Positions 1,284 to 25,631 of a DNA stretch of 27,885 nucleotides are shown here, piece after piece; positions within the stretch are counted from its first letter, which is position 1, and each line of letters starts with the position of its first letter. This DNA is from Promethearchaeota archaeon (GTDB taxonomy: Archaea > Asgardarchaeota > Lokiarchaeia > Sigyniarchaeales > SOKP01). The stretch lies in NCBI GenBank assembly GCA_004524535.1, contig SDNY01000045.1, positions 1-27,885 of the forward strand. Direction: 5' to 3'. Below the pieces are notes generated by a model. The model made no database searches and was not told the DNA's origin. It saw only the letters and a program-made list of their open reading frames with translations. The translations under genes and the position numbers were made by a program.

Positions 1284-1928
1284 TTATCTTAGTTGCGAGT
1301 ACGGTAGTGTATAAATATTTATTAGGCGCTCTTTCGGGGCTAATTGCCGAAGTTGTCGAAAGAAATCTTTTAGAATATCATCGGCTGGTTGATAAGCTTC
1401 TTGGCGAAGTGCCGATTTCCACAGATCAATTACCTCATTAGGACTTCCAGCGACAGGACGCCAGCTCGCTATAATCGGGAAACCTTTAGACGCTTGTTCT
1501 AATGCTGTAAGAAACTCAGGCATTTTATTGGGTGCAACTTCGAGAGTTGCGAGGCTATAGACCCCAAATGCTTTTCTCTGACTACGACGAATTGCTTTAT
1601 GCAAAATTTTTGGTAGTACAGGTTCTAACGGTTCGAGCAGACGTGTTCTTCGTTCAGGGGCGATTTCCTCGAGACGTGCCATATACTCCCCCCATGCTGG
1701 GTCTTGACTAGTTTTCATGCGGAAAGATTTCAATTCTTCCATATCATTGAACTCCATTATATGCGTTACTTGAGAGAACCATTCCACATCGCTATACCAA
1801 GCTGCTACCAGACGAGGTCCCAGACGCTCGCATATAGGAACCAGTTTTTCCTGCGCAAATTTAATAAAAACGTCAAGCGTTTCTGGACTAGCTGGTATGA
1901 GATTTAGCTTTTCTTCTAAATAAATCAT
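1284..1928 (-). CDS. NIPSNAP-family protein (two tandem dimeric alpha/beta barrel domains)
   Basis: Two similar halves (RLVAAW...QVTHIMEF...APERRTRLL and PIIASW...NEVIDLW...APKERLINI) match the NIPSNAP pattern. Co-oriented 45 bp upstream of the transporter. Confidence 0.7.
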   Translation of the reverse strand: MIYLEEKLNLIPASPETLDVFIKFAQEKLVPICERLGPRLVAAWYSDVEWFSQVTHIMEFNDMEELKSFRMKTSQDPAWGEYMARLEEIAPERRTRLLEPLEPVLPKILHKAIRRSQRKAFGVYSLATLEVAPNKMPEFLTALEQASKGFPIIASWRPVAGSPNEVIDLWKSALRQEAYQPADDILKDFFRQLRQLAPKERLINIYTLPYSQLR

Positions 1929-2044
1929 AATTACAATAAAGAGAGATTCAAATATAAATCATTTTTAAACAATTTCAGCATAAAAAAAAATTTTATATGA
2001 ATACCACACTAATATTTATGATATATAATAGGAGTTTTTTTGAA

Positions 2045-2425
2045 ATGTTTCGAATTGAGATAATAGGAGAGAATTGCTTATACATAAAAACTCTAGGGAC
2101 ATTTCCTAAATCTGTAGCTAAGCGATTCGTGAAAGAATTTGAAGAAAAAACGAAAAATTACGAAAATTTCTGCACAATCATAGATAATCTTGATGCTATT
2201 TTGTTAGATGTTAGGTCTTTTAACATAATTTTAGAATTATTAAAAAAGAATAACGAAAAATTAGGAAAAGCAGCGTATGTTATTTCCGCACATAACCTTC
2301 CTTTAGATAAAGAAATTGAAATATTGTTGGAGAAAGCAGATTCTCCCAATCGAAAAATCGTACATAATCTTGACGAGGCTAAAGAATGGGTTGGGATTAA
2401 AGATATTATCATAGGAAAAGAATAA
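2045..2425 (+). CDS. STAS/SpoIIAA-like (STAS/SEC14) domain protein
   Basis: Start moved to ATG 2045, which has GGAG upstream. Pattern YIKTLG...TIIDNLD...GKAAYV...KIVHNLDEAKEWV, with the family's typical C-terminal EA-x-x-W. Confidence 0.65.
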   Translation: MFRIEIIGENCLYIKTLGTFPKSVAKRFVKEFEEKTKNYENFCTIIDNLDAILLDVRSFNIILELLKKNNEKLGKAAYVISAHNLPLDKEIEILLEKADSPNRKIVHNLDEAKEWVGIKDIIIGKE

Positions 2426-2445
2426 ATTATTAGTCTTTTATTATT

Positions 2446-3246
2446 TTATTTGCTATTTAGTCTTTTTTTGGTTAGCTCAATTGCTTTAGGATTATTATCA
2501 ACACCAATCCACCTTCTTTTAAGCTTTTTTGCGACTGCTAAGGTAGTACCCGATCCACAAAAAAAATCTGCAACAATATCTCCTTCATTTGAGGAAGCCA
2601 AAATAATGCGTTTAAGTAATTTTTCCGGCTTTTGAGTAGGATATCCTAAATATTCTTTTGATTTTGTTCTTGTTTGGTAAGAATATATATCGTTCCATAC
2701 ATCTCCTACTAAAGTTCCAGGTTTTTCGTCTAAATATTGTTTTCCACCTCTCCTTTTTCTATAGAGCCGACCATCTTCGTCCTTGTATCGGAACATTTTT
2801 TTTATGTACTCTTCCTTATAAGGTAAATATTGTTTATTAAACGTAAATTCCTCTGATTTGGTATAATACAGGATCGTATCATGCTGACGTACCCATCCTT
2901 TCACTTGACTTTTAAATCCTGAGACACTTCCTACATTCCAAATTATCTCTCTTTTAAAAAGATTTCTTCCAAATATGCTATCACATATCGGTTTTAAATC
3001 GAAAACGGCATTAGGATCACAATGACAGTAGAAACTACCATTCTTTTTTAACACACGATGCATTTCTCTTATTCTTGCTTGCATAAACTCTAAATAATGA
3101 TTTAATGAATTCCATTGATCAGAAAATTCTTGATAATCCACCCCCGTATAGAATGGAGGATCTATATAAATTAAATCTATTATTTCTGAATCGATTTCTT
3201 TTAAAAAATCTAAATTATCGACCAAATGAACCGTGTTGAGTTTCAT
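2446..3246 (-). CDS. Site-specific DNA methyltransferase (N6-adenine/N4-cytosine, beta class), no cognate endonuclease nearby
   Basis: Catalytic DLIYIDPPF near the N-terminus; YPTQKPEKLL and SAM-binding DFFCGSGTT near the C-terminus. Confidence 0.92.
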   Translation of the reverse strand: MKLNTVHLVDNLDFLKEIDSEIIDLIYIDPPFYTGVDYQEFSDQWNSLNHYLEFMQARIREMHRVLKKNGSFYCHCDPNAVFDLKPICDSIFGRNLFKREIIWNVGSVSGFKSQVKGWVRQHDTILYYTKSEEFTFNKQYLPYKEEYIKKMFRYKDEDGRLYRKRRGGKQYLDEKPGTLVGDVWNDIYSYQTRTKSKEYLGYPTQKPEKLLKRIILASSNEGDIVADFFCGSGTTLAVAKKLKRRWIGVDNNPKAIELTKKRLNSK

Positions 3247-9408: not shown

Positions 9409-10146
9409 CTATAATAGATTGAGCCAAGCTGAATCGTCTTTTAATTGTTCATATTCATCAATATCTCCAAAATTTCCAATAAATTGTTCTTTTTCCATTT
9501 GAATAACTCGAACTTTCCAGTTTCTTTCTTTAATTCCAATTCTAATTGCTTCAGGGAGTTCTAATTCCCCTCTTTTAGACGGTTTTAAAGTTTTTACTAA
9601 ATCAAATATTTCCTTGGAAAATATGAAAACACCAGTATTATCAAGATTTGAGCTAGATGTTCCTTTTGGGGGCTTTTCAATAATATCTGAACAATAATTT
9701 CCTTCGCAATAAATAGCTGCACCTTTATAGGGATCATCTGTATAACTCGTTACGAGTAGAAAATCTTGCTCTTCTTCTTTGTACACATTGTATAAATCTC
9801 TATATACTTTATATGATACTAAAGTATCTCCCCATGTTAAGAAAAAATGTTGATTTGTTATTGAATTTTCGCAAAGTAATAGCGCTCCTCCTGTTCCATT
9901 TAACTCAATTTGTTCAATATATTCAATAGTAATATTCCAATTGCTTCCATCTTGAAAATAATCAATGATTTGTTCTTTAAGAAAACCTACTACTATAACA
10001 AAATCTTTAATACCAGCGGTTTTAATCCCGTTTATGATATATTCTAATAAAGGCTTTCCGTGGACTGGAATCATTGTTTTCTGGTATTTTTCAGTATAAG
10101 GACGCATGCGTTTTCCATATCCCGCACATAAAATGATTGCTTTCAA
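9409..10146 (-). CDS. Nucleotidyltransferase (NTP_transferase family), TTG start
   Basis: KAIILCAGYGKRMRP, NGTGGA, WGD, IEKP and SKRGELEL motifs; no beta-helix tail. Confidence 0.9.
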   Translation of the reverse strand: MKAIILCAGYGKRMRPYTEKYQKTMIPVHGKPLLEYIINGIKTAGIKDFVIVVGFLKEQIIDYFQDGSNWNITIEYIEQIELNGTGGALLLCENSITNQHFFLTWGDTLVSYKVYRDLYNVYKEEEQDFLLVTSYTDDPYKGAAIYCEGNYCSDIIEKPPKGTSSSNLDNTGVFIFSKEIFDLVKTLKPSKRGELELPEAIRIGIKERNWKVRVIQMEKEQFIGNFGDIDEYEQLKDDSAWLNLL

Positions 10147-11149: not shown

Positions 11150-12151
11150 TTAAATAATATTTAATCTTTGGAATAAACCAGTAACCAGAATCGGTAGTGC
11201 TATTGTAGCATCACACCAAACACTCACATACTGAGAATCTAGAGCATATTTTCCCCATGATTTAGATTCTGAAGTTGTACACCCTGAGAGACCTCCGTCA
11301 TATTCCGTTGCTGTATGAATACGAACAGAATACTTATAACCAGATTCAATTCCATGATCTCTTAGTTGTTCAAGATGCTCTAAATATGGAAAGATTTGTT
11401 GTGCCCAATTTCTTGGTACACCACCACCAACAATAAATAACCCAGCTTTCTTATGTGATTTTATAATTTCTGCAAATTTTTTAACATCCTCAAAAATGTT
11501 AAAATTAAATTCATAACCCTCCTTAATAGTGAATTTAACTAAATCTAATGCTAACTCAGAGTCGCTAAAAGCAGGTATAAAAACAGGGATATTATGTTTA
11601 GTAGCTAGGGAAAGAATACATTTTTTATCTATTTTATTTCCAATTAATTTTAGAAATTCAGAGGGAGAAATTTCTAACTTTTTATCCTTACATATTTGAT
11701 TTATTATCTCTAAAAGTTTATTCCTTGTTATTTTATAATTATCCTCAGGGAGAAATGTATCATATATTCTATTAATTTCAAGGTTATAGAGCTCATTATC
11801 ATCCACATTGGGGCTTCCTATATAATGTCCGATATTAACTATTGTGTCAATTAAATCATGAGTAATATTAGCACCTGTTGTAATCAACACATCAATAATA
11901 TTATGTTCGATTAATGAGCAAATTAATCCTCCCATACCTGCTGGAACCATTGCCCCAGAAAGGGCTAAAATTTTTAGACATTCTTTATCTGAAACCATTT
12001 TTTCAAGGATATCAAGTGCGTTCCCTAAATTTCTTCCTTGAAATCCACAGTATTTAAGATTTTCTAAAAGATCTTCTATATTTCTGATTTTATTCACATC
12101 GAAAGGAATAACTTTCTTTATTAAATAATCATCTTTAATATTAGGTCTCAT
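11150..12151 (-). CDS. dhs: Deoxyhypusine synthase family protein
   Basis: GFQGRNL, SGAMVPAG, TTGANITHD, PAFSDSE, GGGVPRN and DGGLSG...SWGK (catalytic Lys retained). Confidence 0.93.
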   Translation of the reverse strand: MRPNIKDDYLIKKVIPFDVNKIRNIEDLLENLKYCGFQGRNLGNALDILEKMVSDKECLKILALSGAMVPAGMGGLICSLIEHNIIDVLITTGANITHDLIDTIVNIGHYIGSPNVDDNELYNLEINRIYDTFLPEDNYKITRNKLLEIINQICKDKKLEISPSEFLKLIGNKIDKKCILSLATKHNIPVFIPAFSDSELALDLVKFTIKEGYEFNFNIFEDVKKFAEIIKSHKKAGLFIVGGGVPRNWAQQIFPYLEHLEQLRDHGIESGYKYSVRIHTATEYDGGLSGCTTSESKSWGKYALDSQYVSVWCDATIALPILVTGLFQRLNII

Positions 12152-12226: not shown

Positions 12227-12775
12227 ATGTCATTAGTTCCTAAAGCGGTATGTTTTGTAAAGGGTAATGGTTTTCATAAATCTAAATTAGGTTCTTTTGA
12301 AAATGCTTTAAGATCTGCTGGTATTGCTAAATTTAATATAGTTAAAGTAAGTTCAATATTGCCCCCTTACTGTATTGAAATTCCACAAAAGGATGGATTA
12401 GCTCAACTTCGTGCTGGACAAGTAGTATATATTGTAATGAGTAGAGCGAGCAGTAATGAATTCAATCGTTTAATTTCCGCTTCTATAGGTGTTGCTAAAC
12501 CTGCTGACCAAAGAACATATGGTTATTTAAGTGAACATCATGCTTTTGGAGTAACACCCGATAAAGCAGGAGAATTTGCTGAAGATTTAGCAGCGGAAAT
12601 GTTAGCAACTACTTTAGGAATTCCATTTGATCCTGAAGCAAATTATGATGAGAAAAAAGAAATTTTTAGAATGGACGAAAAAATTGTTGAAACCAAGAAT
12701 ATAACTGAATCTGTAACTGTTAGAGAAGAAAATGAATGGGCTACGGTATTAGCAGCAGCCGTTTTTATAATTTAA
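12227..12775 (+). CDS. pdaD: Pyruvoyl-dependent arginine decarboxylase
   Basis: SFENALRSAGIAKFNIVKVSSILPP (Ser-Ser autocleavage site), YGYLSEHH and LAAEMLATTLG. Confidence 0.93.
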   Translation: MSLVPKAVCFVKGNGFHKSKLGSFENALRSAGIAKFNIVKVSSILPPYCIEIPQKDGLAQLRAGQVVYIVMSRASSNEFNRLISASIGVAKPADQRTYGYLSEHHAFGVTPDKAGEFAEDLAAEMLATTLGIPFDPEANYDEKKEIFRMDEKIVETKNITESVTVREENEWATVLAAAVFII

Positions 12776-12835: not shown

Positions 12836-13945
12836 ATGATGAATGGCGAAATTGTCTTTTTTCAATTATTTGATGTTGGTCGATATATTGATCTAAATGA
12901 AATTCAATCTATTTTCCCGGGAATTAGAGATAAGAAAATTATTAAAACTAAAGATACTCCTGATTATATTATTATTCCCGAAACAATTCGGGTTGAAATT
13001 GAACAAGATATTATAGTAAAATCTAGTAATCTAAAGAATTTTAAAGCTCAGATAAAACTTTATGAAGATGGGGTAATTTCTTTTACTATAAGAATAGATT
13101 TTGTTGATTTACCGTTAGAACGTTTTCATTCTATTCGAAATACTGAGATAAATACGCCAGATGGCACATATAAAATTGAAAATTGGATTAAACTTCAATT
13201 TAGTAATTTTTATGAACTTTCTGGAGACTATATTGATTCATATTTTAACTCCTTAGATCATATTGAGTCCGAAAAATATACTTGTTTTTGTATAACAGAT
13301 GTTTTTAAAGACCCTAATGCATTTATTGGAGAAAATGAGAATTATTTAGCTCCATTTTTAATGGGAGAAAATCCTGAATTAGATCTTCATCAAAATCAGA
13401 TTAATAATACATTAAAAAATTCATTTTCTTTTTTAAAACAGGATATTGCTATTTTTGATTTTGATCGGTGTCTTATCTTTGATTCGACAAAAGATTATGA
13501 AGATCTCTTGCTTATTATAGAATTAGCAAATTTTCAGCGTTTAGAATTAAGAACGCTAGATCGCTTGTTAGATATACATTTGGATAGCGCAGAAGATGAT
13601 ATACGTAGTATTTTTATTAAAAGTCGATTATTTTTGAGAAGATTGAATAAAAAATTAGGCTATTTATTTAGAATAAGGTATGATTTTATCTTTATCTTTG
13701 AAAATTTAGAAAATGTCTCAAAAATCATTGGGGATTACTATTTAGCTCAAATTTATCGTCATTTGGGAAAAGTTTTCCGATTTAAACAATGGAGTGAAAG
13801 TATACGCAATAGAATGAGAATATTGGATGAGATATATACAACGGCAAAAGCTACTAAGACAGATAAATTAATAATTTACTTGGAAATTCTATTAGGTATT
13901 GTATTTACTCTGGAATTTATACTGTTTCTTCTAGGATTGTATTAA
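12836..13945 (+). CDS. RMD1/DUF155-like protein with single C-terminal TM helix
   Basis: FDVG...LYEDGVISF, LELRTLDRLLD, GDYYLAQIY...W...I.NRM..LDEIY, and terminal LEILLGIVFTLEFIL. Confidence 0.65.
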   Translation: MMNGEIVFFQLFDVGRYIDLNEIQSIFPGIRDKKIIKTKDTPDYIIIPETIRVEIEQDIIVKSSNLKNFKAQIKLYEDGVISFTIRIDFVDLPLERFHSIRNTEINTPDGTYKIENWIKLQFSNFYELSGDYIDSYFNSLDHIESEKYTCFCITDVFKDPNAFIGENENYLAPFLMGENPELDLHQNQINNTLKNSFSFLKQDIAIFDFDRCLIFDSTKDYEDLLLIIELANFQRLELRTLDRLLDIHLDSAEDDIRSIFIKSRLFLRRLNKKLGYLFRIRYDFIFIFENLENVSKIIGDYYLAQIYRHLGKVFRFKQWSESIRNRMRILDEIYTTAKATKTDKLIIYLEILLGIVFTLEFILFLLGLY

Positions 13946-16887: not shown

Positions 16888-17564
16888 TTACGTTTTAGAT
16901 CACCTTTAATTAAAGATGGTTAAGAGTTTTTTATTAAATATTTAAGATGATAATATTCTATACAGATCTAATAATCCTTTTAAAATTTTAAATCAGTTAA
17001 AGGAAATTTATACTAATTCAAAATTGATTAAATCCATGATTAGGGGATCAATTCTTTTTTCCTTTATAGACTTGAAAATATATAAGACAAATGAAATGTT
17101 AAAAGACAATTATCAAGTATTAAGGAGGTGTATCTCTATTAGAACCAGATTTAATACATAAGAGGCATATTCAATTTCGTATGGAATTTTATTTTTCCAA
17201 TTGTAATTAGATATATACAATTTCATATTACATGCACCTATCTTAATATTACTATAATGAAAAAAGATCTTAATAAATTTATCTAATTATATATCGGATA
17301 ATATTGATTAAAATAAATAATTTTCTAAAAATATGATAATTTTTGCATTTTATATGATGGATTATTCAACATTATCGTCCTTCTGCAATTGTTTTCAATG
17401 ATTGATAATGATAACAAAAAAATATTCAAATATAATTGAATTGGAATAGATCTTGTACTATATTAATCTAAATTTAGCTACACAATTAAAGTTGAAAATA
17501 AAAATCAAAAAAAAGAAAAAAAAAAATAGTTCAATATTAGTTTTTTGTTATCTTATTAGGTATT

Positions 17565-18038
17565 TTAGATAATTATTGGCAAGGGGGGCACAAAATTATC
17601 TTGATTTTTAGAGATCCATGGTTGGCCGTTAGGTATAATATATTTATCAATAATCCCTTGACAGTTTTCTGCTCTGCATAAACATTTGAATGTCCATCGA
17701 TTATCCCAGTATCCCGGATCTTCATTTTCATGTACAATATTATAACTAATAGTTAATTCTTCGTTAAATCTTACAGATCGAAGAGTTACAACATCAAGAT
17801 TGTCATTAATTTTACAATTTGGATCACATGAATGATTCAAATAACGAGCATTTGTTATTGGTATGACCCATCTCTCCCTATCTATTAAAAGAGCATAATA
17901 AATTTCCTCAAGCGGGATTTCTTCCTTAAAAACAATTATTCCATTAAAATTTTCAACAATAATTCCCGCGGGTAAATCATATTGAGCAATTAAACATTTT
18001 CCATAGACACAATTATCAACTTTAGAGGGATATTCCAA
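17565..18038 (-). CDS. SET-domain protein-lysine methyltransferase with post-SET Zn motif
   Basis: RYLNHSCDPN, EELTISY and post-SET CLCRAENCQG. TTG start with GGTGA 7 nt upstream. Confidence 0.92.
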   Translation of the reverse strand: MEYPSKVDNCVYGKCLIAQYDLPAGIIVENFNGIIVFKEEIPLEEIYYALLIDRERWVIPITNARYLNHSCDPNCKINDNLDVVTLRSVRFNEELTISYNIVHENEDPGYWDNRWTFKCLCRAENCQGIIDKYIIPNGQPWISKNQDNFVPPLPIII

Positions 18039-18078
18039 GAAATATTCACCAATTCCATTTGAAATAAGTATTGGTTTA

Positions 18079-20007
18079 TTAAATTAATTTATCGTTGATA
18101 CTATTTTCAGTTGCGATTAAAATCTCTTTAAGCATTTCCTGATAGGTAAGCCCTCCATATTTGGCCATTTTAGCGAGATGCCCATCCCAACACCATCCGG
18201 GATTAGGATTTACTTCTAGAAGTTTTGGATTTCCTTCACCATCAAGTCTCCAATCAAAACGAGCATAATCTTTGCATTCCAATCTTTCAAATAACTTTAA
18301 ACTGCAAGATTCTATTATTTCTCTAGTTTTATCAGGAAGTATAGCTGGAATTGACTTTATATTCCAATAAGGTGAGTCAGGTAACCATTTTGCTTCATAT
18401 CCACATATTTTGGGTAATTCTGGAGGTAGATCAGAATAATCATCTTCAGAAATAGGTAATATCCTATATTGATTTGGAGGATTTCCAATGATACCTACAG
18501 TTAGGTCTTTTCCTGTAAGGAACTGTTCAACTATTATGGATTGATCATAGCCAAACTTACCTCTAATTTCATTTATAGCATCAATTAATTCTTCACCATT
18601 ATAAACTACACATCTCTGTGTGATCCCAAAGCTAGAGTCCCCAAAATTAGGTTTAACTATTGCGGGAAAATATAAAGGTAAATCAAAAGCTTTATCACCT
18701 GGTCTAATAAAAATAGCTTCTGGTACAGGAATATCCATCTCTTTTGCAATACCTCTCACAAGCGATTTATCATAACAAAATGCGAGACATTGAGGGCCAG
18801 CACCAGTATAAGGAATATGGAGAATATCTAATAAAGCTGGCACATGTAATTCATTTCTGGCAGTATTATAATACCCTTCATCGCATAGATTAAGGACATA
18901 ATCAATATTTCCATTGATTTTTATTAAATCAGAGATTAATGAATCGTGATTTGTTAAATATATGAATTGATAGCCCTTAATACTTCTTAAAGCATCTTTT
19001 AGTTGATCAATTGTATAGAAATCATCATCATCAAAAATATGAGCAGGTTTCAATACATCTGGCTTATTAGGATCACCCATAATAACAACTACTTTCTTTT
19101 CGGCACTTTTAATTGTTTTTTTAATTGGTGTCCATTGTTTTTTCACAAGGGCACTTATAATAAGCCGTTTTTCCATCATACCTAGATCTTGGTTTCTTCG
19201 GGAATTTGGGGTCAGAGTTCCATGAAATAATACATCACTAAGACCTGCATTTACTAATAATTCTTGAATTTTCTTTTCTGAATAGAGCCTTTCAGCATAG
19301 AATTGATCTACTAAAACTCCATCATTAACATGGCTTATAACTTCTCGAGAAATAAGCCGCTGCTTATCTAGAGAAAGTGAGCGTTCTCTACATACATAAT
19401 GCTCTCTATCTATCCATTCCCAAGATCGCGGTTGATAATTATTTTTTAAGTATTCTCCATCAGTCAAGTCAATTAGGATATGCCCCCACGGTTTTAAAAC
19501 TCGAAATACCTCTTTTAATACTTTTAGATCATCTTGTATTGAGTCAAAATATCCAAAGCTATTCCCTAAAATCATTACAACATCAAAAGAATCAGGGGGA
19601 TAAGGAAGAATTCTAGCATCTCCCTCTCGAAATTTTACAGAGAGATTCTTATTTCTGGCAGTCTTTTTCGCCTCCTGAATAAGGAAACGAGATTTATCTA
19701 AACCTTCTACTCTATTAAAGCCTCTTTTTGCTAATTCTAAAGAATGTCTACCATGTCCACAACATAAATCTAAAATTTTCTTGTTGCTTTCGAGATTAAG
19801 GATTTTTGTGTATATATCAATTTCTCTTGATGTAATTTCCTCATCATTAACAACATCTCCATCGGTCTTTAAATAATAAGAATTAAAAAGATGATTCCAC
19901 CAATCTTTGCGAACATAATCTTCTAAATTTGACACAGGACCTAAGCATGGAAATAAATCATCAACATTTTTGTTTTTTATATTACTAATGTTTACATTTT
20001 TGGTCAT
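18079..20007 (-). CDS. Fusion: class I SAM methyltransferase + D-Ala-D-Ala-ligase-like ATP-grasp domain
   Basis: N-terminal ILDLCCGHGRHS, GDAR and GNSFGYF. C-terminal IPYTG...YDK, IVKP...SSFGI, VEQFLTGKDLTVG, YEAKW, YARFDWR and LLEVNPNPG. Confidence 0.93.
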   Translation of the reverse strand: MTKNVNISNIKNKNVDDLFPCLGPVSNLEDYVRKDWWNHLFNSYYLKTDGDVVNDEEITSREIDIYTKILNLESNKKILDLCCGHGRHSLELAKRGFNRVEGLDKSRFLIQEAKKTARNKNLSVKFREGDARILPYPPDSFDVVMILGNSFGYFDSIQDDLKVLKEVFRVLKPWGHILIDLTDGEYLKNNYQPRSWEWIDREHYVCRERSLSLDKQRLISREVISHVNDGVLVDQFYAERLYSEKKIQELLVNAGLSDVLFHGTLTPNSRRNQDLGMMEKRLIISALVKKQWTPIKKTIKSAEKKVVVIMGDPNKPDVLKPAHIFDDDDFYTIDQLKDALRSIKGYQFIYLTNHDSLISDLIKINGNIDYVLNLCDEGYYNTARNELHVPALLDILHIPYTGAGPQCLAFCYDKSLVRGIAKEMDIPVPEAIFIRPGDKAFDLPLYFPAIVKPNFGDSSFGITQRCVVYNGEELIDAINEIRGKFGYDQSIIVEQFLTGKDLTVGIIGNPPNQYRILPISEDDYSDLPPELPKICGYEAKWLPDSPYWNIKSIPAILPDKTREIIESCSLKLFERLECKDYARFDWRLDGEGNPKLLEVNPNPGWCWDGHLAKMAKYGGLTYQEMLKEILIATENSINDKLI

Positions 20008-20098
20008 TTATATTTAATTCCTTTTTTTTAGTCTTTAATTTGAATTTTTCTATAATTTTATAAAAAAAAATTTGATTTTTCACATTTATTCCGTTGAA

Positions 20099-20254
20099 TT
20101 AGTCATAATATCCATCATTTTCTTCATCCCAGTCTTCATCTTCGTCCCAATCATCATCCTCATCATCCTCATCGTCGTCCCAATCATCATCCACATCATC
20201 TTCCTCTTTTTTTCTTGTTTTGGGGGGTGTAAAAATATTTTTTTTTAGGGTCAT
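20099..20254 (-). CDS. Acidic microprotein B (51 aa): basic leader plus D/E-aromatic tail
   Basis: Below the track cut-off. Translates to MTLKKNIFTPPKTRKKEEDDVDDDWDDDEDDEDDDWDEDEDWDEENDGYYD. SD-like GAAGTGA and BRE/TATA upstream; lies 91 bp upstream of the MTase/ATP-grasp gene on the same strand. Confidence 0.8.
   Translation of the reverse strand: MTLKKNIFTPPKTRKKEEDDVDDDWDDDEDDEDDDWDEDEDWDEENDGYYD
20142..20192. repeat. 18-bp direct repeat (tcgtcccaatcatcatcc) at 20142-20159 and 20175-20192
   Basis: Read directly. The 33-nt period encodes the duplicated DDDWD unit of microprotein B. Confidence 0.85.
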
Positions 20255-20305
20255 ATTTTTCACTTCTTTTCATTAAATTATTAATTGTTGAAATAAATAT
20301 CATAA

Positions 20306-20337
20306 TATATAAATGTTTTCATTGAAAACTTTAAATA
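20306..20337. promoter_or_regulatory. Back-to-back divergent BRE/TATA promoters
   Basis: TATATAAA-T-GTTTTCA-T-TGAAAAC-TTTAAATA: minus strand GAAAACA-TTTATATA, plus strand GAAAAC-TTTAAATA. Confidence 0.65.
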
Positions 20338-20359
20338 CGATGATAAACTTTGCATCGTA
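20336..20359. promoter_or_regulatory. Inverted repeat TACGATG-N10-CATCGTA, candidate operator
   Basis: Perfect 7-bp arms immediately downstream of the plus-strand TATA box of an RHH-domain gene. Confidence 0.55.
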
Positions 20360-20419
20360 ATTTTCATTAATATATTTTTATTTTACAAATCATTTTTGAT
20401 TGAAATATTGACAGCGAAC

Positions 20420-20980
20420 ATGCCAAAGAATAAAAGTAATTTTTTAGGATTTAGATTAGGAGAAAATGATCTTAAGTGGTTAGATAATATTGCAAAAATT
20501 GAAAATAAATCGAGAGGTATTATCGCAAAACAAGCTGTTAAGAATTGGATACAACTTGAATCTTTCCGGAAAACCAATAATATGTTCGTAATTACAAAAT
20601 CAATGTTTTTAAAATTAGTATCAATTGAAGATGAAGATACTTTAAATAAGATAGCTAATGAAATAGCATCGTTAATCGCAGATATACTAAGATATAGTAT
20701 TACTAAACCAATGATTCCTAAAAACTTCGATAACTACTCAAAAAACATTTCAAATTTATTAGGTCCTTCAGGAATAAGTTGGTTTAATAGCATAGATTTA
20801 AATTTTAATGAAAAAAAAATTTTGGTAAAAGGTTTACATGACTTGGATGACAATTTTGCGTACTTTTTTACAAAAGTAATTTTAAATCTATTAGAAACCC
20901 AATTTAATCTTGAATTAAAAGAAGTAGTTAATGAATACTCCTCCAATATATTATATTTAGAATATCAGCTTGAGGTATAA
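20420..20980 (+). CDS. Ribbon-helix-helix (CopG-like) regulator with C-terminal V4R-like domain
   Basis: Start preferred at ATG 20420. FLGFRLGENDLKWLDNIAKIENKSRGIIAKQAVKNWI is a beta-strand/helix/helix RHH pattern. The C-terminal assignment is tentative. Confidence 0.65.
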   Translation: MPKNKSNFLGFRLGENDLKWLDNIAKIENKSRGIIAKQAVKNWIQLESFRKTNNMFVITKSMFLKLVSIEDEDTLNKIANEIASLIADILRYSITKPMIPKNFDNYSKNISNLLGPSGISWFNSIDLNFNEKKILVKGLHDLDDNFAYFFTKVILNLLETQFNLELKEVVNEYSSNILYLEYQLEV

Positions 20981-21047: not shown

Positions 21048-21692
21048 TTGGGAGAATTAAAAAAAATTGAAGATTTAGCTAAAGATAATTTCAATATCGC
21101 GAAAGAAGAAAGAGAAGTAGCATTCGAGGCTAAAAGAGTTGGAAAATCTGAATTAGAACGAGCGAAAGCGAGATTATTTCTCATCAAAAAAGAATTAGAA
21201 TTAGTAGAAGCATGTGAAACATTTGTTGAAAAAGATACTAACTTACTAAGTAAAAAAAAAGAATGTAAAGACTCACTTAATATTCCAGAAGATTATTTAA
21301 ACGAAATGCATGAATTGTTGCAAATTAATAAAAAAAAAGCGAAAATCCAGAAAAGTATTACTGAAATCCAAAAAAAAATAGTTGTAACTGAATTTCAAAT
21401 TGCTGAAGAAAGATTAGAATTATCAATTAAAACCATGAATGTAGCTAATATAAGGAAAAAATTATCGAAAAAACAATTAATTTATGTGAAAAAAGTAAAA
21501 AGTAAAGCATCTAACGAAAAAATTAAAACAGCAGAAAAGCAATTTACTGAATTACAAGATGAATTAATAGACGCAAGAGAGAAAGTAGTCAAAACTGCGA
21601 ATAAAATAAAGAAGTTGAACGATAAATTAGCTGATTTGAAAATACAATTATCTGAAAAATTATCTGAATGGGAGAAAATAAGGTCTATTTAA
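21048..21692 (+). CDS. Hypothetical all-helical coiled-coil protein
   Basis: K/E-rich heptad pattern throughout. TTG start with GGTGA 7 nt upstream. Confidence 0.75.
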   Translation: MGELKKIEDLAKDNFNIAKEEREVAFEAKRVGKSELERAKARLFLIKKELELVEACETFVEKDTNLLSKKKECKDSLNIPEDYLNEMHELLQINKKKAKIQKSITEIQKKIVVTEFQIAEERLELSIKTMNVANIRKKLSKKQLIYVKKVKSKASNEKIKTAEKQFTELQDELIDAREKVVKTANKIKKLNDKLADLKIQLSEKLSEWEKIRSI

Positions 21693-24614: not shown

Positions 24615-25631
24615 TCAAATTATTTGAAGAATCAACCATTTTAATGCGTTAATAATCTCATCATCATCTTTTAGAATATTTAATGAATAGAATTGAAGTT
24701 TAACTACTTTTTTTTGCTCCTCTGACAGTTTTAGATAATTATAAACTTCATTTTCTTCTAAAGATCTCTCTCCCTCAGAAATGTTTTCGATTATCAAGAT
24801 TGGAAAATTTATTGTTTTATCTGCAATATTAATAATAATTTTTTCAATATCCTCTTTTAATTTTTTTATATTGTCTTCCTTTCCATTTTTGAATAGATAT
24901 ATAAAAGCCTGTATAGTATCTAAATCAAGAGATGAATTTAAATCAATTCTTGGATATGGAATTTTAATGTTTTCAATTAAAACACTAAAAATACGTGTGG
25001 AGAGACTGAAATCTTTTTGTTTGTAAAATTGGATGGCTTCAATATTCTTTAGTAAAATTTGTTTACCAGCATTTTTTTGCCCTATAATGAAGATTTTTCT
25101 TTTGATTCTTGAATCCTTAGTAATAATATTAATCTCGGGGTCAAGAACTAGTTTATTAAAAAAATGATTGAAAATAGGAAAAAAGTCGACATTATGTTCT
25201 TTACACAATAGATTCAAATCTGTTTCATTAGGATCTTTTTTATGACTATGTAAAATTAAGTTAAAGTTTGGTAATTGCGTAAGCTGAGATTCAAAATCTT
25301 CAAGAATTTCTACTTTAGAATTTAAGTAATTATAAACATCTCCTAATTCATACTTGAAAAAAGAGGTCCGTAGGAGAAATGAGATCATCAATAATTCAGA
25401 TCCGCCCCTTGCCATCTTCGAGGAAATACGGAATATATGGTTAATAGATTGATATCTCCGAAATGAAAATAAAAAGGATCCTGAATGCTCACTAAATTCT
25501 AATATTCGAAAAAGATCTGGAAAATCCTTATCATCTGGTTTGGATGGTTGACAATATAAAAAATTGGGTCCGATTCTTTCATCAAAATATAATATACATA
25601 GATACTTTGCTTCTAACAAAGTTTGAACCAT
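24615..25631 (-). CDS. Longin/uDENN-like domain fused to degenerate small-GTPase-like domain
   Basis: N-terminal ILYFDERIGP...F.I.SKMARGG.ELLMISF; C-terminal RKIFIIGQKNAGKQ, QAFIYLF, PILIIEN and ALKWL. Confidence 0.65.
   Translation of the reverse strand: MVQTLLEAKYLCILYFDERIGPNFLYCQPSKPDDKDFPDLFRILEFSEHSGSFLFSFRRYQSINHIFRISSKMARGGSELLMISFLLRTSFFKYELGDVYNYLNSKVEILEDFESQLTQLPNFNLILHSHKKDPNETDLNLLCKEHNVDFFPIFNHFFNKLVLDPEINIITKDSRIKRKIFIIGQKNAGKQILLKNIEAIQFYKQKDFSLSTRIFSVLIENIKIPYPRIDLNSSLDLDTIQAFIYLFKNGKEDNIKKLKEDIEKIIINIADKTINFPILIIENISEGERSLEENEVYNYLKLSEEQKKVVKLQFYSLNILKDDDEIINALKWLILQII

Follow-up and report, generated by a model that had tools for sequence, protein, structure and literature searches.

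A polyacidic tryptophan-repeat microprotein family of Asgard archaea and its lineage-specific adjacency to a methyltransferase/Ddl-type ATP-grasp fusion

We analyzed a 27,885-nucleotide (nt) stretch of DNA, below called the window, which comprises positions 1-27,885 of contig SDNY01000045.1 of a Promethearchaeota archaeon (assembly GCA_004524535.1; Asgardarchaeota; Lokiarchaeia; Sigyniarchaeales; SOKP01). The window is AT-rich (GC 23-38% per 1-kb window), the source names of its close homologs (Promethearchaeota, Lokiarchaeota, etc.) indicate an Asgard origin, and the genome to which it belongs (G000) has 3.66 Mb and is 99% complete. Three minus-strand genes are at issue (Table 1): one for a polyacidic microprotein of 51 amino acids (aa), one for an S-adenosylmethionine (SAM)-dependent methyltransferase (MTase) fused to a Ddl-like ATP-grasp ligase, and one for a small SET-domain protein. 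The original prediction took them for one operon of the kind that makes peptides that are synthesized by ribosomes and modified after translation (RiPPs), with the microprotein gene in first place. The genes are as described there, down to the gaps of 91 nt (microprotein to fusion, whose ATG is at 20007) and 40 nt (fusion stop at 18079 to the SET start, a TTG at 18038); the conserved three-gene system is not borne out. Across the Asgard phylum, the microprotein family and the fusion enzyme occur independently of each other, and they are preferentially neighbors in a single family of Lokiarchaeia.

Table 1. Features of the window discussed in the text
Feature	Position	Strand	Remarks
Second microprotein paralog, 55 aa	10459..10626	-	GPNKKKNEK leader, tail of D/E with W/Y/F
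T11-C-T8 tract	17507..17526	-	About 40 nt past the SET stop; candidate terminator of a putative fusion-SET unit
SET protein, 157 aa, TTG start	17565..18038	-	Pfam SET; post-SET-like Cys motif
Fusion, 642 aa	18079..20007	-	Class I SAM-methyltransferase (~19483-19776) and three-domain Ddl-type ATP-grasp (~18112-19101)
T9 run	20062..20070	-	28 nt past the microprotein stop; candidate archaeal intrinsic terminator; kept in G005
Microprotein gene, 51 aa	20099..20254	-	K-rich leader and poly-D/E tail, three Trp, ends NDGYYD
TATA-like box TTTATATA	20306..20313	-	Purine-rich BRE-like stretch before the box; candidate microprotein promoter
Divergent gene, 194 aa	20396..20980	+	No Pfam or NCBIfam match; N-terminus ribbon-helix-helix-like by eye

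The microprotein open reading frame (ORF) runs from an ATG at 20254 to a stop at 20099, and an in-frame GTG at 20263 would lengthen the product to 54 aa. Its layout, on the minus strand, is the one originally described: a Lys-rich leader of 16 aa, MTLKKNIFTPPKTRKK, and then 35 residues of which 27 are Asp or Glu (D/E) and three are Trp. This acidic core contains no Ser, Thr or Lys, and the microprotein as a whole has no Cys. We define the family to which it belongs as ORFs of at most 100 aa with a short N-terminus, often bearing GP and a Lys/Arg patch, at least two [DE]2-W-[DE]3 units and a stop soon after the acidic tract; the window ORF, with PPKTRKK and three W-acidic units, falls within this definition. 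Upstream, the box and purine-rich stretch that had been taken for a promoter with a B recognition element (BRE) and TATA box are indeed present. The box, TTTATATA, lies about 56 nt before the ATG, and in an alignment the block is nearly identical in G005, a genome of the same genus; that it serves as the promoter of the microprotein gene is something we infer from its sequence. Oligo-T tracts terminate archaeal transcription, and one such run lies just past the microprotein stop.

Chance does not account for the ORF. The 3.66-Mb genome has 44,705 stop-to-stop frames with a length of 30 aa or more; a D/E content of 64% over 25 aa is reached in 13, and just two of these are small ORFs of the microprotein kind, both inside the window. 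On the other strand, a frame at 20072-20248 (+) is also open and encodes an Ile/Val/Phe/Pro-rich peptide, D/E-rich DNA leaving its opposite strand open by construction. Codon-by-codon comparison of 15 ortholog or paralog pairs showed differences piling up at sense position 3 in all 15; between L022 and L024, the counts over the three codon positions were 1:0:15, and 12 changes were synonymous and 3 non-synonymous. Read in the in-register antisense frame, sense position-3 changes become first-position changes that alter the amino acid. Outside the low-complexity part, protein motifs also recur, namely an N-terminal x(5-10)-GP-(K/R)n patch and NDG(D/Y)(W/Y). Because of this position-3 bias and these recurring motifs, we take the sense frame as coding and the microprotein gene, as judged from its substitution pattern, as genuine.

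In the orthologous gene of G005 (locus L021, G005:C28, 2809-2925, minus strand), 58 nt of the repeat tract are deleted, and the acidic tail is thereby no longer in frame with the conserved ATG; the adjoining fusion is intact, at 85% identity. A-runs lie near this deletion, so an assembly error is possible. Sequence pieces matching 19900-20450 of the window were short, of low likeness and from other contigs, and they covered the repeat only, none spanning the stretch. Ordinary annotation tools give the family no name. With Pfam at E values up to 10, six family members returned noise only (four matches with E >1, all on one member); NCBIfam gave the microprotein no match, a profile search of PDB sequences with the family gave 0 matches, and the best ESM Atlas score, 0.82, was under the lead level. 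A profile search of 5.8 billion proteins with the microprotein yielded two matches at E up to 1e-3, a setting in which low complexity and database size defeat E values.

As originally proposed, the fusion combines a SAM-MTase with a Ddl-like ATP-grasp ligase: residues 78-175 match Pfam Methyltransf_25 (73.3 bits, cutoff 27), with Methyltransf_31 (72.7 bits, cutoff 27) and Methyltransf_11 (62 bits, cutoff 21.2) close behind, and residues 444-630 match Dala_Dala_lig_C (100.9 bits, cutoff 24). Both halves have matches among PDB sequences (Ddl 3r23 at 8e-21; the MTase 9ri2 at 2.6e-20), and Ddl and VanA matches to the ATP-grasp half span 1e-21 to 1e-15. An AF2 model of the fusion has a predicted local distance difference test score (pLDDT) of 74.7; in Foldseek the modeled ATP-grasp half resembled Ddl 3r5x and 3r23 (E 3e-19, template modeling [TM] score 0.77 normalized to the target, 343 aligned columns). 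The MTase half resembles small-molecule and peptide N/O-methyltransferases in the PDB sequence search and Foldseek (9ri2, 3d2l, CypM, glycine-sarcosine MTase), a likeness that does not fix its acceptor. Mean column identity over 47 sequences is 77%. A GxGxG-type motif region is a feature of class I SAM-methyltransferases, and the LDLCCGxGRH of the MTase half is invariant over these 47 homologs, as are K452, E494, D585/R587, E598/N600 and the PG blocks of the ligase half, as aligned to Ddl.

Like Ddl and Van ligases, the fusion thus keeps the three-domain fold, the ATP/Mg blocks and a YEAK-aromatic loop. It departs from them in several respects. Its loop motif is an invariant YEAKW, with Trp replacing the Tyr of aligned Ddl chains; the segment past the conserved PG is WCWDGH, where aligned Ddl chains have a Ser-Leu/Met region; an MTase is fused to it; and its scores fall far under the NCBIfam cutoffs for Ddl (TIGR01205, 123.7 versus 245.65 bits; NF002378, 121.5 versus 243). 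On these sequence comparisons, the ATP-grasp half has a Ddl-type fold and is not assignable as a functional Ddl. In Asgard archaea, D-Ala-D-Ala has no role that is known to us. The isoelectric points (pI), which permit weak inference only, are 4.75 for the ATP-grasp half (net charge about -17), 9.3 for the MTase half and 4.7 for the SET protein. The ATP-grasp passages of one paper (PMC11237513) are not relevant to the fusion.

To place these genes in a wider setting, we used 60 close relatives and a 251-genome sample across the Asgard phylum; below, f numbers denote families and g numbers genera, f1 being the Lokiarchaeia family to which the window belongs. Full-length fusion homologs of 58-85% identity are present in 21 of the 60 close relatives, and the fusion occurs in 56 of the 251 sampled genomes at 64-85% identity. 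By family, it is in 39/54 genomes of f1, 4/4 of f8, 2/2 of f9, 4/5 of f13 and 6/6 of f24; it was not found in f12 (0/59), f10 (0/26) or f27 (0/16). Stand-alone Ddl-like ATP-grasp paralogs adjoin it in two genomes (L034, G015:C49, 5508-6503; L038, G038:C257, 3005-4177), and tandem stand-alone Ddl-like ligases occur in the f2 genomes G041, G045 and G049. We lean toward regarding such neighbors as more typical of stepwise small-molecule ligation. A Rosetta-stone link was considered and dropped, longer fusion homologs (718-770 aa) having no acidic N-terminal extension.

Is the microprotein regularly found beside the fusion? Upstream regions of fusion genes were scanned in six frames, with wide flanks retrieved for 21 loci and a second set drawn from the phylum sample. 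An acidic Trp-repeat ORF within 2.2 kb upstream was present at 25 of 38 f1 loci and at 0 of 18 loci in six other Asgard families, so that the expectation, set beforehand, of an acidic ORF near homologous fusions held inside f1 and failed outside it. The first set contributed 12 of 17 f1 loci and 0 of 4 loci of f2-f4 (one f1 locus, L031, had just 241 nt of upstream sequence). The second contributed 13 of 21 further f1 loci, all divergent, from flanks of only 1.5 kb, with less than 700 nt upstream at three of them; there, 0 of 14 loci of f8, f9, f13 and f24 had an acidic ORF nearby, with about 3.4 kb available per side. Even within f1 the pairing is not universal: roughly one in two fusion loci of genus g2 has no microprotein, a transporter gene taking its place in G021.

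The geometry of these pairs bears directly on the proposed operon. In 18 of the 25 the two genes are divergent, including five from the first set that lie 511-2141 nt apart (L025, L027, L028, L029, L034). Seven are in tandem, with the ORF 86-487 nt upstream (the window, L021, L022, L024, L008, L032, L035), and in all seven a T8-T11 run follows the microprotein stop by 27-74 nt; the background for T7 or longer here is 6.9% of random 70-nt windows. This gene order does not fit a microprotein that is the first cistron of a three-gene operon, and as far as can be read from gene order and T-runs, microprotein and fusion would not share one. Given the T-run past the microprotein, the absence of one in the fusion-SET gap and the T11-C-T8 tract past SET, the likely transcription units are the microprotein alone and fusion-SET.

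Beyond f1, the two genes occur independently. A DNA pattern for the double W-acidic motif matched 103 of the 251 genomes, with 0 matches for the reversed control pattern; of 14 matches checked in seven other families, 12 were small ORFs, those from f27 again with the GPK/R leader. A single-motif pattern gave clustered matches in relatives that lack the fusion and on other contigs. The motif occurs without the fusion in f12 (motif 34/59, fusion 0/59) and in f27 (motif 10/16, fusion 0/16), and the converse holds in f8 and f24, where 10 of 10 genomes have the fusion and 0 of 10 the double-W motif. Two f8 genomes, G060 (one contig, 98% complete) and G071 (97%), contain no run of seven D/E codons anywhere. 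Thus, by its occurrence in sequenced genomes, the microprotein family is independent of the fusion enzyme at phylum scale. Conversely, since the fusion is 64-68% identical across lineages that lack the microprotein, and very probably performs the same chemistry in them, that chemistry would not need the microprotein.

The window itself holds a second paralog (Table 1), 524 nt downstream of a deoxyhypusine synthase (DHS) gene (11150-12151) and 313 nt upstream of a nucleoside triphosphate (NTP)-transferase gene (9409-10146); a gene for a pyruvoyl arginine decarboxylase (ArgDC) is nearby, at 12227-12775. The DHS/ArgDC context recurs for paralogs in at least five further genomes (loci L043, L049, L053, L055, L071). 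Other recurrent contexts are a PHP-domain protein with an alpha/beta-hydrolase (five loci) and a HEAT/coiled-coil protein with a cyclophilin and an ADP-forming acetyl-CoA synthetase (three loci). All of these contexts are unrelated to peptide modification. Of 26 listed paralogs, 12 have a convergent gene downstream, which marks them as stand-alone genes rather than leader ORFs. Many family members end in an acidic-aromatic sequence (EEY, DDY or YYD); among fusion-adjacent copies the C-terminal residue varies (D, M, F, Y, E).

W-acidic proteins are found well outside this phylum. With one genome per prokaryotic species, at least 120 stretches of triple W-acidic repeats were found in many bacteria and in other archaea, so the motif class is not Asgard specific; common descent of the ORFs beyond Asgard archaea is unproven. 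Among the matches listed (80 loci) there were 77 matching ORFs, 25 of them of at most 100 aa. Also among the matches listed, Thermoproteota, Bathyarchaeia and an Acidianus genome have EEEW-repeat ORFs of 26-50 aa that end in Trp (L187, L226, L250, L255 and others), and Chloroflexota carry a 75-76-aa W-acidic form with a Cys-containing N-terminal part. At the Asgard locus L052 (G050:C116, 1737-1988, minus strand), an 83-aa ORF has several CxxC pairs, resembling a zinc ribbon, and a W-acidic tail ending EDEDY, so that the acidic tail is here fused to a small folded domain.

We turn to the third gene. The assignment of a SET/post-SET protein was correct: the 157-aa ORF matches Pfam SET (PF00856) at 39.4 bits (cutoff 22.4; E 8.8e-10), and its translation shows the strings NHSC, ELTISY and CLCRAENC, which we take to be SET and post-SET signatures. 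From the short, T-run-free gap that separates the two genes, SET is probably cotranscribed with the fusion, in this genome only. In a blastp search at 1e-5, SET adjoined the fusion at 1 of 21 loci, that of the window. Orthologs were found in 8 of the 60 relatives and 4 of the 251 sampled genomes, nine genomes in total, in contexts that are otherwise unrelated (thioredoxin-reductase-like, MobA-like, metallophosphatase and URO-D-like genes); of the 56 genomes with the fusion in the phylum sample, 47 show no such SET gene, and in G005, of the same genus as the window, the fusion is present and SET was not found. Given its single adjacency in 21 loci, SET is most readily viewed as a rare accessory gene and only incidentally the downstream cistron of the fusion here.

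All nine SET genomes do carry the fusion, including the sole fusion-positive genome among 14 of f2. Moreover, at L059 (G016:C22) a SET ortholog with 51% identity (1411-1947, plus strand) precedes a stand-alone Ddl-like ATP-grasp gene (2017-3009, plus strand) by 79 nt, a second SET/ATP-grasp adjacency; this ATP-grasp has 27% identity to the ligase half of the fusion. The arrangement in G016 and the nine-genome overlap are a weak hint of some tie of SET with Ddl-like ligases. A preprint describes its representative Asgard archaea as having no SET orthologs of eukaryotic histone methyltransferases; it also describes D/E methylation on archaeal histones, and its supplements may list methyltransferase candidates (bioRxiv 10.64898/2026.07.02.735847).

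How does the locus compare with systems already described? LysW is an acidic protein of about 54 aa with a Trp-containing tail, encoded near an ATP-grasp ligase, LysX (ArgX), that acts on its carboxylate; its globular domain is a Zn ribbon, the C-terminal Glu of its EDWGE motif is invariant, and its partner belongs to the RimK/LysX subfamily of ATP-grasp enzymes. The likeness here is that of a small acidic, Trp-tailed protein near an ATP-grasp ligase. The microprotein, however, has no Cys and a variable C-terminus, the ligase matches Dala_Dala_lig_C rather than RimK, and no lysine or arginine pathway genes were among the Pfam matches near the fusion or the paralogs. As candidates for a LysW-like protein we considered L228 (Anaerolineae), with a possible Zn ribbon (one CPAC in the excerpt) and a W-acidic tail, and L052; neither had LysX-type neighbors among the ORFs listed, which were assessed by eye on their terminal sequences and without a family search, and the idea was set aside. 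RimK with S6, and TTL/TTLL with tubulin, are likewise ATP-grasp enzymes that decorate D/E-rich tails, and several microproteins have EEY-like ends. Against this likeness, the fusion has no RimK or TTL match among the 10 Pfam families listed, the microprotein is free-standing and not a tail on a folded protein, and the two are phyletically independent outside f1.

Graspetides, and the Ddl-like ATP-grasp enzyme PGM1 of pheganomycin, which uses ribosomal peptides, share with this locus the combination of a ribosomal peptide and an ATP-grasp ligase. The acidic core here differs in lacking the Thr, Ser or Lys with which omega-ester or omega-amide links are formed. Neither a leader-recognition (RRE-type) domain nor a protease or exporter of the sort usual in RiPP clusters was found by Pfam on the fusion, SET or their neighbors, where the only domains were MTase, ATP-grasp, SET and major facilitator superfamily (MFS), the last from a gene kept at just 4 of 21 fusion loci. 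Unlike precursor and tailoring enzyme in RiPP clusters, microprotein and fusion are not coinherited across the phylum. Likeness to DSS1/Sem1 and to eukaryotic W-acidic motifs is compositional only, all being small, D/E rich and disordered (presumably so for the microprotein) with Trp or Phe anchors for basic grooves; six family members gave no DSS1_SEM1 match in Pfam at E up to 10.

Other genes of the window deserve brief mention. The divergent 194-aa gene with a ribbon-helix-helix (RHH)-like N-terminus adjoins the pair also at L021, L022 and L008, an arrangement confined to genera g1 and g6. The MFS gene mentioned above lies downstream of the locus. A 214-aa Lys/Glu-rich protein (21048-21692, plus strand; pI 9.4), predicted to be a coiled coil and without a family match, has counterparts near 3 of 21 fusion loci. 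A 369-aa protein (12836-13945, plus strand) has no Pfam match and is grouped by ESM Atlas with MJ0711_N (PF27233; score 0.98); genes for its homologs are convergent to the fusion at 13 of 42 f1 loci and lie next to ArgDC here and in G001. Arf-family-type small GTPases are typical of Asgard genomes, and a 338-aa protein (24615-25631, minus strand) has a weak match to that family in its C-terminal half (PF00025, E 4.6e-4, under the cutoff).

Taken together, the probable explanation, in our view, is that the locus juxtaposes an independent, trans-acting polyanionic microprotein and an autonomous ligase-methyltransferase whose adjacency is specific to the f1 lineage. The microprotein would be transcribed separately, from its own TATA-type promoter to an oligo-T terminator. 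With its short N-terminus, often bearing GP and a Lys/Arg patch, and its D/E runs broken by Trp, Tyr or Phe, it is presumably disordered, and we imagine it as a free, trans-acting polyanion that carries aromatic anchors and binds a basic partner or a cation. The fusion would be the older and more widespread of the two, very conserved and working without the microprotein in other lineages. Since it keeps a Ddl-like loop and has stand-alone Ddl-like paralogs beside it, the fusion may ligate and methylate a small amino-acid- or amine-type substrate. With the rare SET gene, it would form a local bicistron in this genome alone. The f1 adjacency might then reflect shared regulation, non-covalent modulation or inherited synteny; in the last case, the pair would be part of a block of loose conservation in which DHS, ArgDC, the MJ0711-like gene and the MobA-like gene are found as well.

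Several observations weigh against so loose a connection. The pair is the most persistent neighborhood of the fusion, occurring at 12 of 21 loci versus at most 5 of 21 for any other cluster (at least 70 aa, within 3.5 kb), amid three or more distinct flanking contexts and in either orientation. The microprotein of g11 and g2 is found immediately upstream of a gene for a MobA-like NTP-transferase (cluster c11); among c11 loci taken one per genome (n = 30), the microprotein adjoins in four, precisely those with the fusion adjacent. Similarly, in G001 and G007 the RHH-like gene, there without the fusion, has no microprotein next to it, and in f1 the W-acidic motif is present in 31 of 40 fusion-positive versus 6 of 15 fusion-negative genomes (Fisher p = 0.02, with relatives that are not independent). 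On the c11 loci, the RHH-like gene and the motif enrichment, the pair behaves as a unit within f1. In principle, D/E side chains could be targets of both chemistries of the fusion, carboxylate activation and methyl transfer; its MTase half is basic. These pairing patterns favor a real functional tie, which could be covalent, and a tie between microprotein and fusion in f1 is the part of the original prediction that, going by gene neighborhoods, stays plausible.

One can therefore ask whether the f1 microprotein is a covalent substrate or carrier, the ATP-grasp half amidating Asp/Glu or the C-terminus (or loading it as LysX loads LysW) and the MTase half methylating, while lineages that lack the microprotein would offer the enzyme other acidic tails or small molecules. 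The retention of the pair at most f1 loci, its tracking of the fusion rather than of other neighbors and the enrichment just described would all be expected on such a scheme; small acidic proteins are established as partners of ATP-grasp enzymes (LysX/LysW, RimK/S6, TTL/TTLL), and the acidic-aromatic ends of the family recall the tails of alpha-tubulin, the TTL substrate, and LysW. Yet we consider it doubtful. The enzyme is about 65% identical in lineages without any such protein, and the microprotein is often lost or degenerate where the fusion is kept, as in G005 and half of g2. The last residue varies among fusion-adjacent copies, the core offers no Ser, Thr or Lys for graspetide-type cross-links, the ATP-grasp half is itself acidic and of the Ddl rather than the RimK/LysX/TTL type, and most pairs are divergent, with a T-run separating the tandem ones. 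Cofolding of the fusion (47-row alignment) with the microprotein (12-row alignment) gave scores of 0.00 and 0.00 against a mark of 0.32, which is no answer for or against binding. A related and rather improbable proposal, drawn by analogy with the decoration of tubulin tails or cyanophycin, is that the f1 microprotein would be a templated polyanionic scaffold on which the fusion amidates or methyl-esterifies Asp/Glu carboxylates or the acidic-aromatic C-terminus. Quite different is the idea that the ORF acts in cis, as a leader whose nascent D/E chain senses Mg2+, polyamine or aIF5A status, or that it is untranslated and the hydrophobic antisense product is the real one. Such ORFs do lie 5' of a same-strand gene in about half of cases, one paralog group neighbors DHS and ArgDC, genes of hypusine and polyamine synthesis, acidic nascent chains destabilize ribosomes in bacteria, and the antisense frame is open. 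Still, the 12 paralogs with a convergent downstream gene cannot be leaders, coupling is made less likely by spacers that measure 86-490 nt and contain a T-run, the GP-basic and NDG(D/Y)(W/Y) motifs are kept at the protein level and the position-3 substitutions would be non-synonymous in antisense, so that we regard this idea as very unlikely. We give next to no credence to the full three-gene RiPP-like system, in which SET would methylate lysines of the PKTRKK leader. The arrangement exists in the window, and both the nine-genome overlap and the SET/ATP-grasp pair of G016 could be read in its favor; set against these are the single SET adjacency, the 4 genomes with SET versus 56 with the fusion in the phylum sample, the unrelated contexts of SET elsewhere, a G005 genome with fusion and no SET, a K-rich leader that is not conserved in sequence and in G005 is even out of frame, and the overall acidity of both SET and the microprotein.

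Whichever account of the f1 tie is correct, two elements appear to be new. In the literature searched, no published account was found of an MTase/Ddl-type fusion or of Asgard W-acidic microproteins. One is a very conserved SAM-methyltransferase/Ddl-type fusion that spans distant Asgard families. The other is an Asgard-wide set of 40-80-aa polyacidic Trp-repeat microproteins that go unnamed by Pfam, NCBIfam, PDB sequences and ESM Atlas. W-acidic motifs dock on trafficking and cytoskeletal adaptors in eukaryotes, where W-acidic docking motifs and the modification of acidic tails (the tubulin code) are both prominent; Asgard archaea may carry a W-acidic linear-motif microprotein family of their own. 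If the tie between microprotein and fusion is covalent, it would represent a new kind of protein modification by an ATP-grasp enzyme, and this in the lineage closest to eukaryotes. If it is not, an attractive operon model is corrected, and what emerges is a family of small proteins that deserves proteomic attention.

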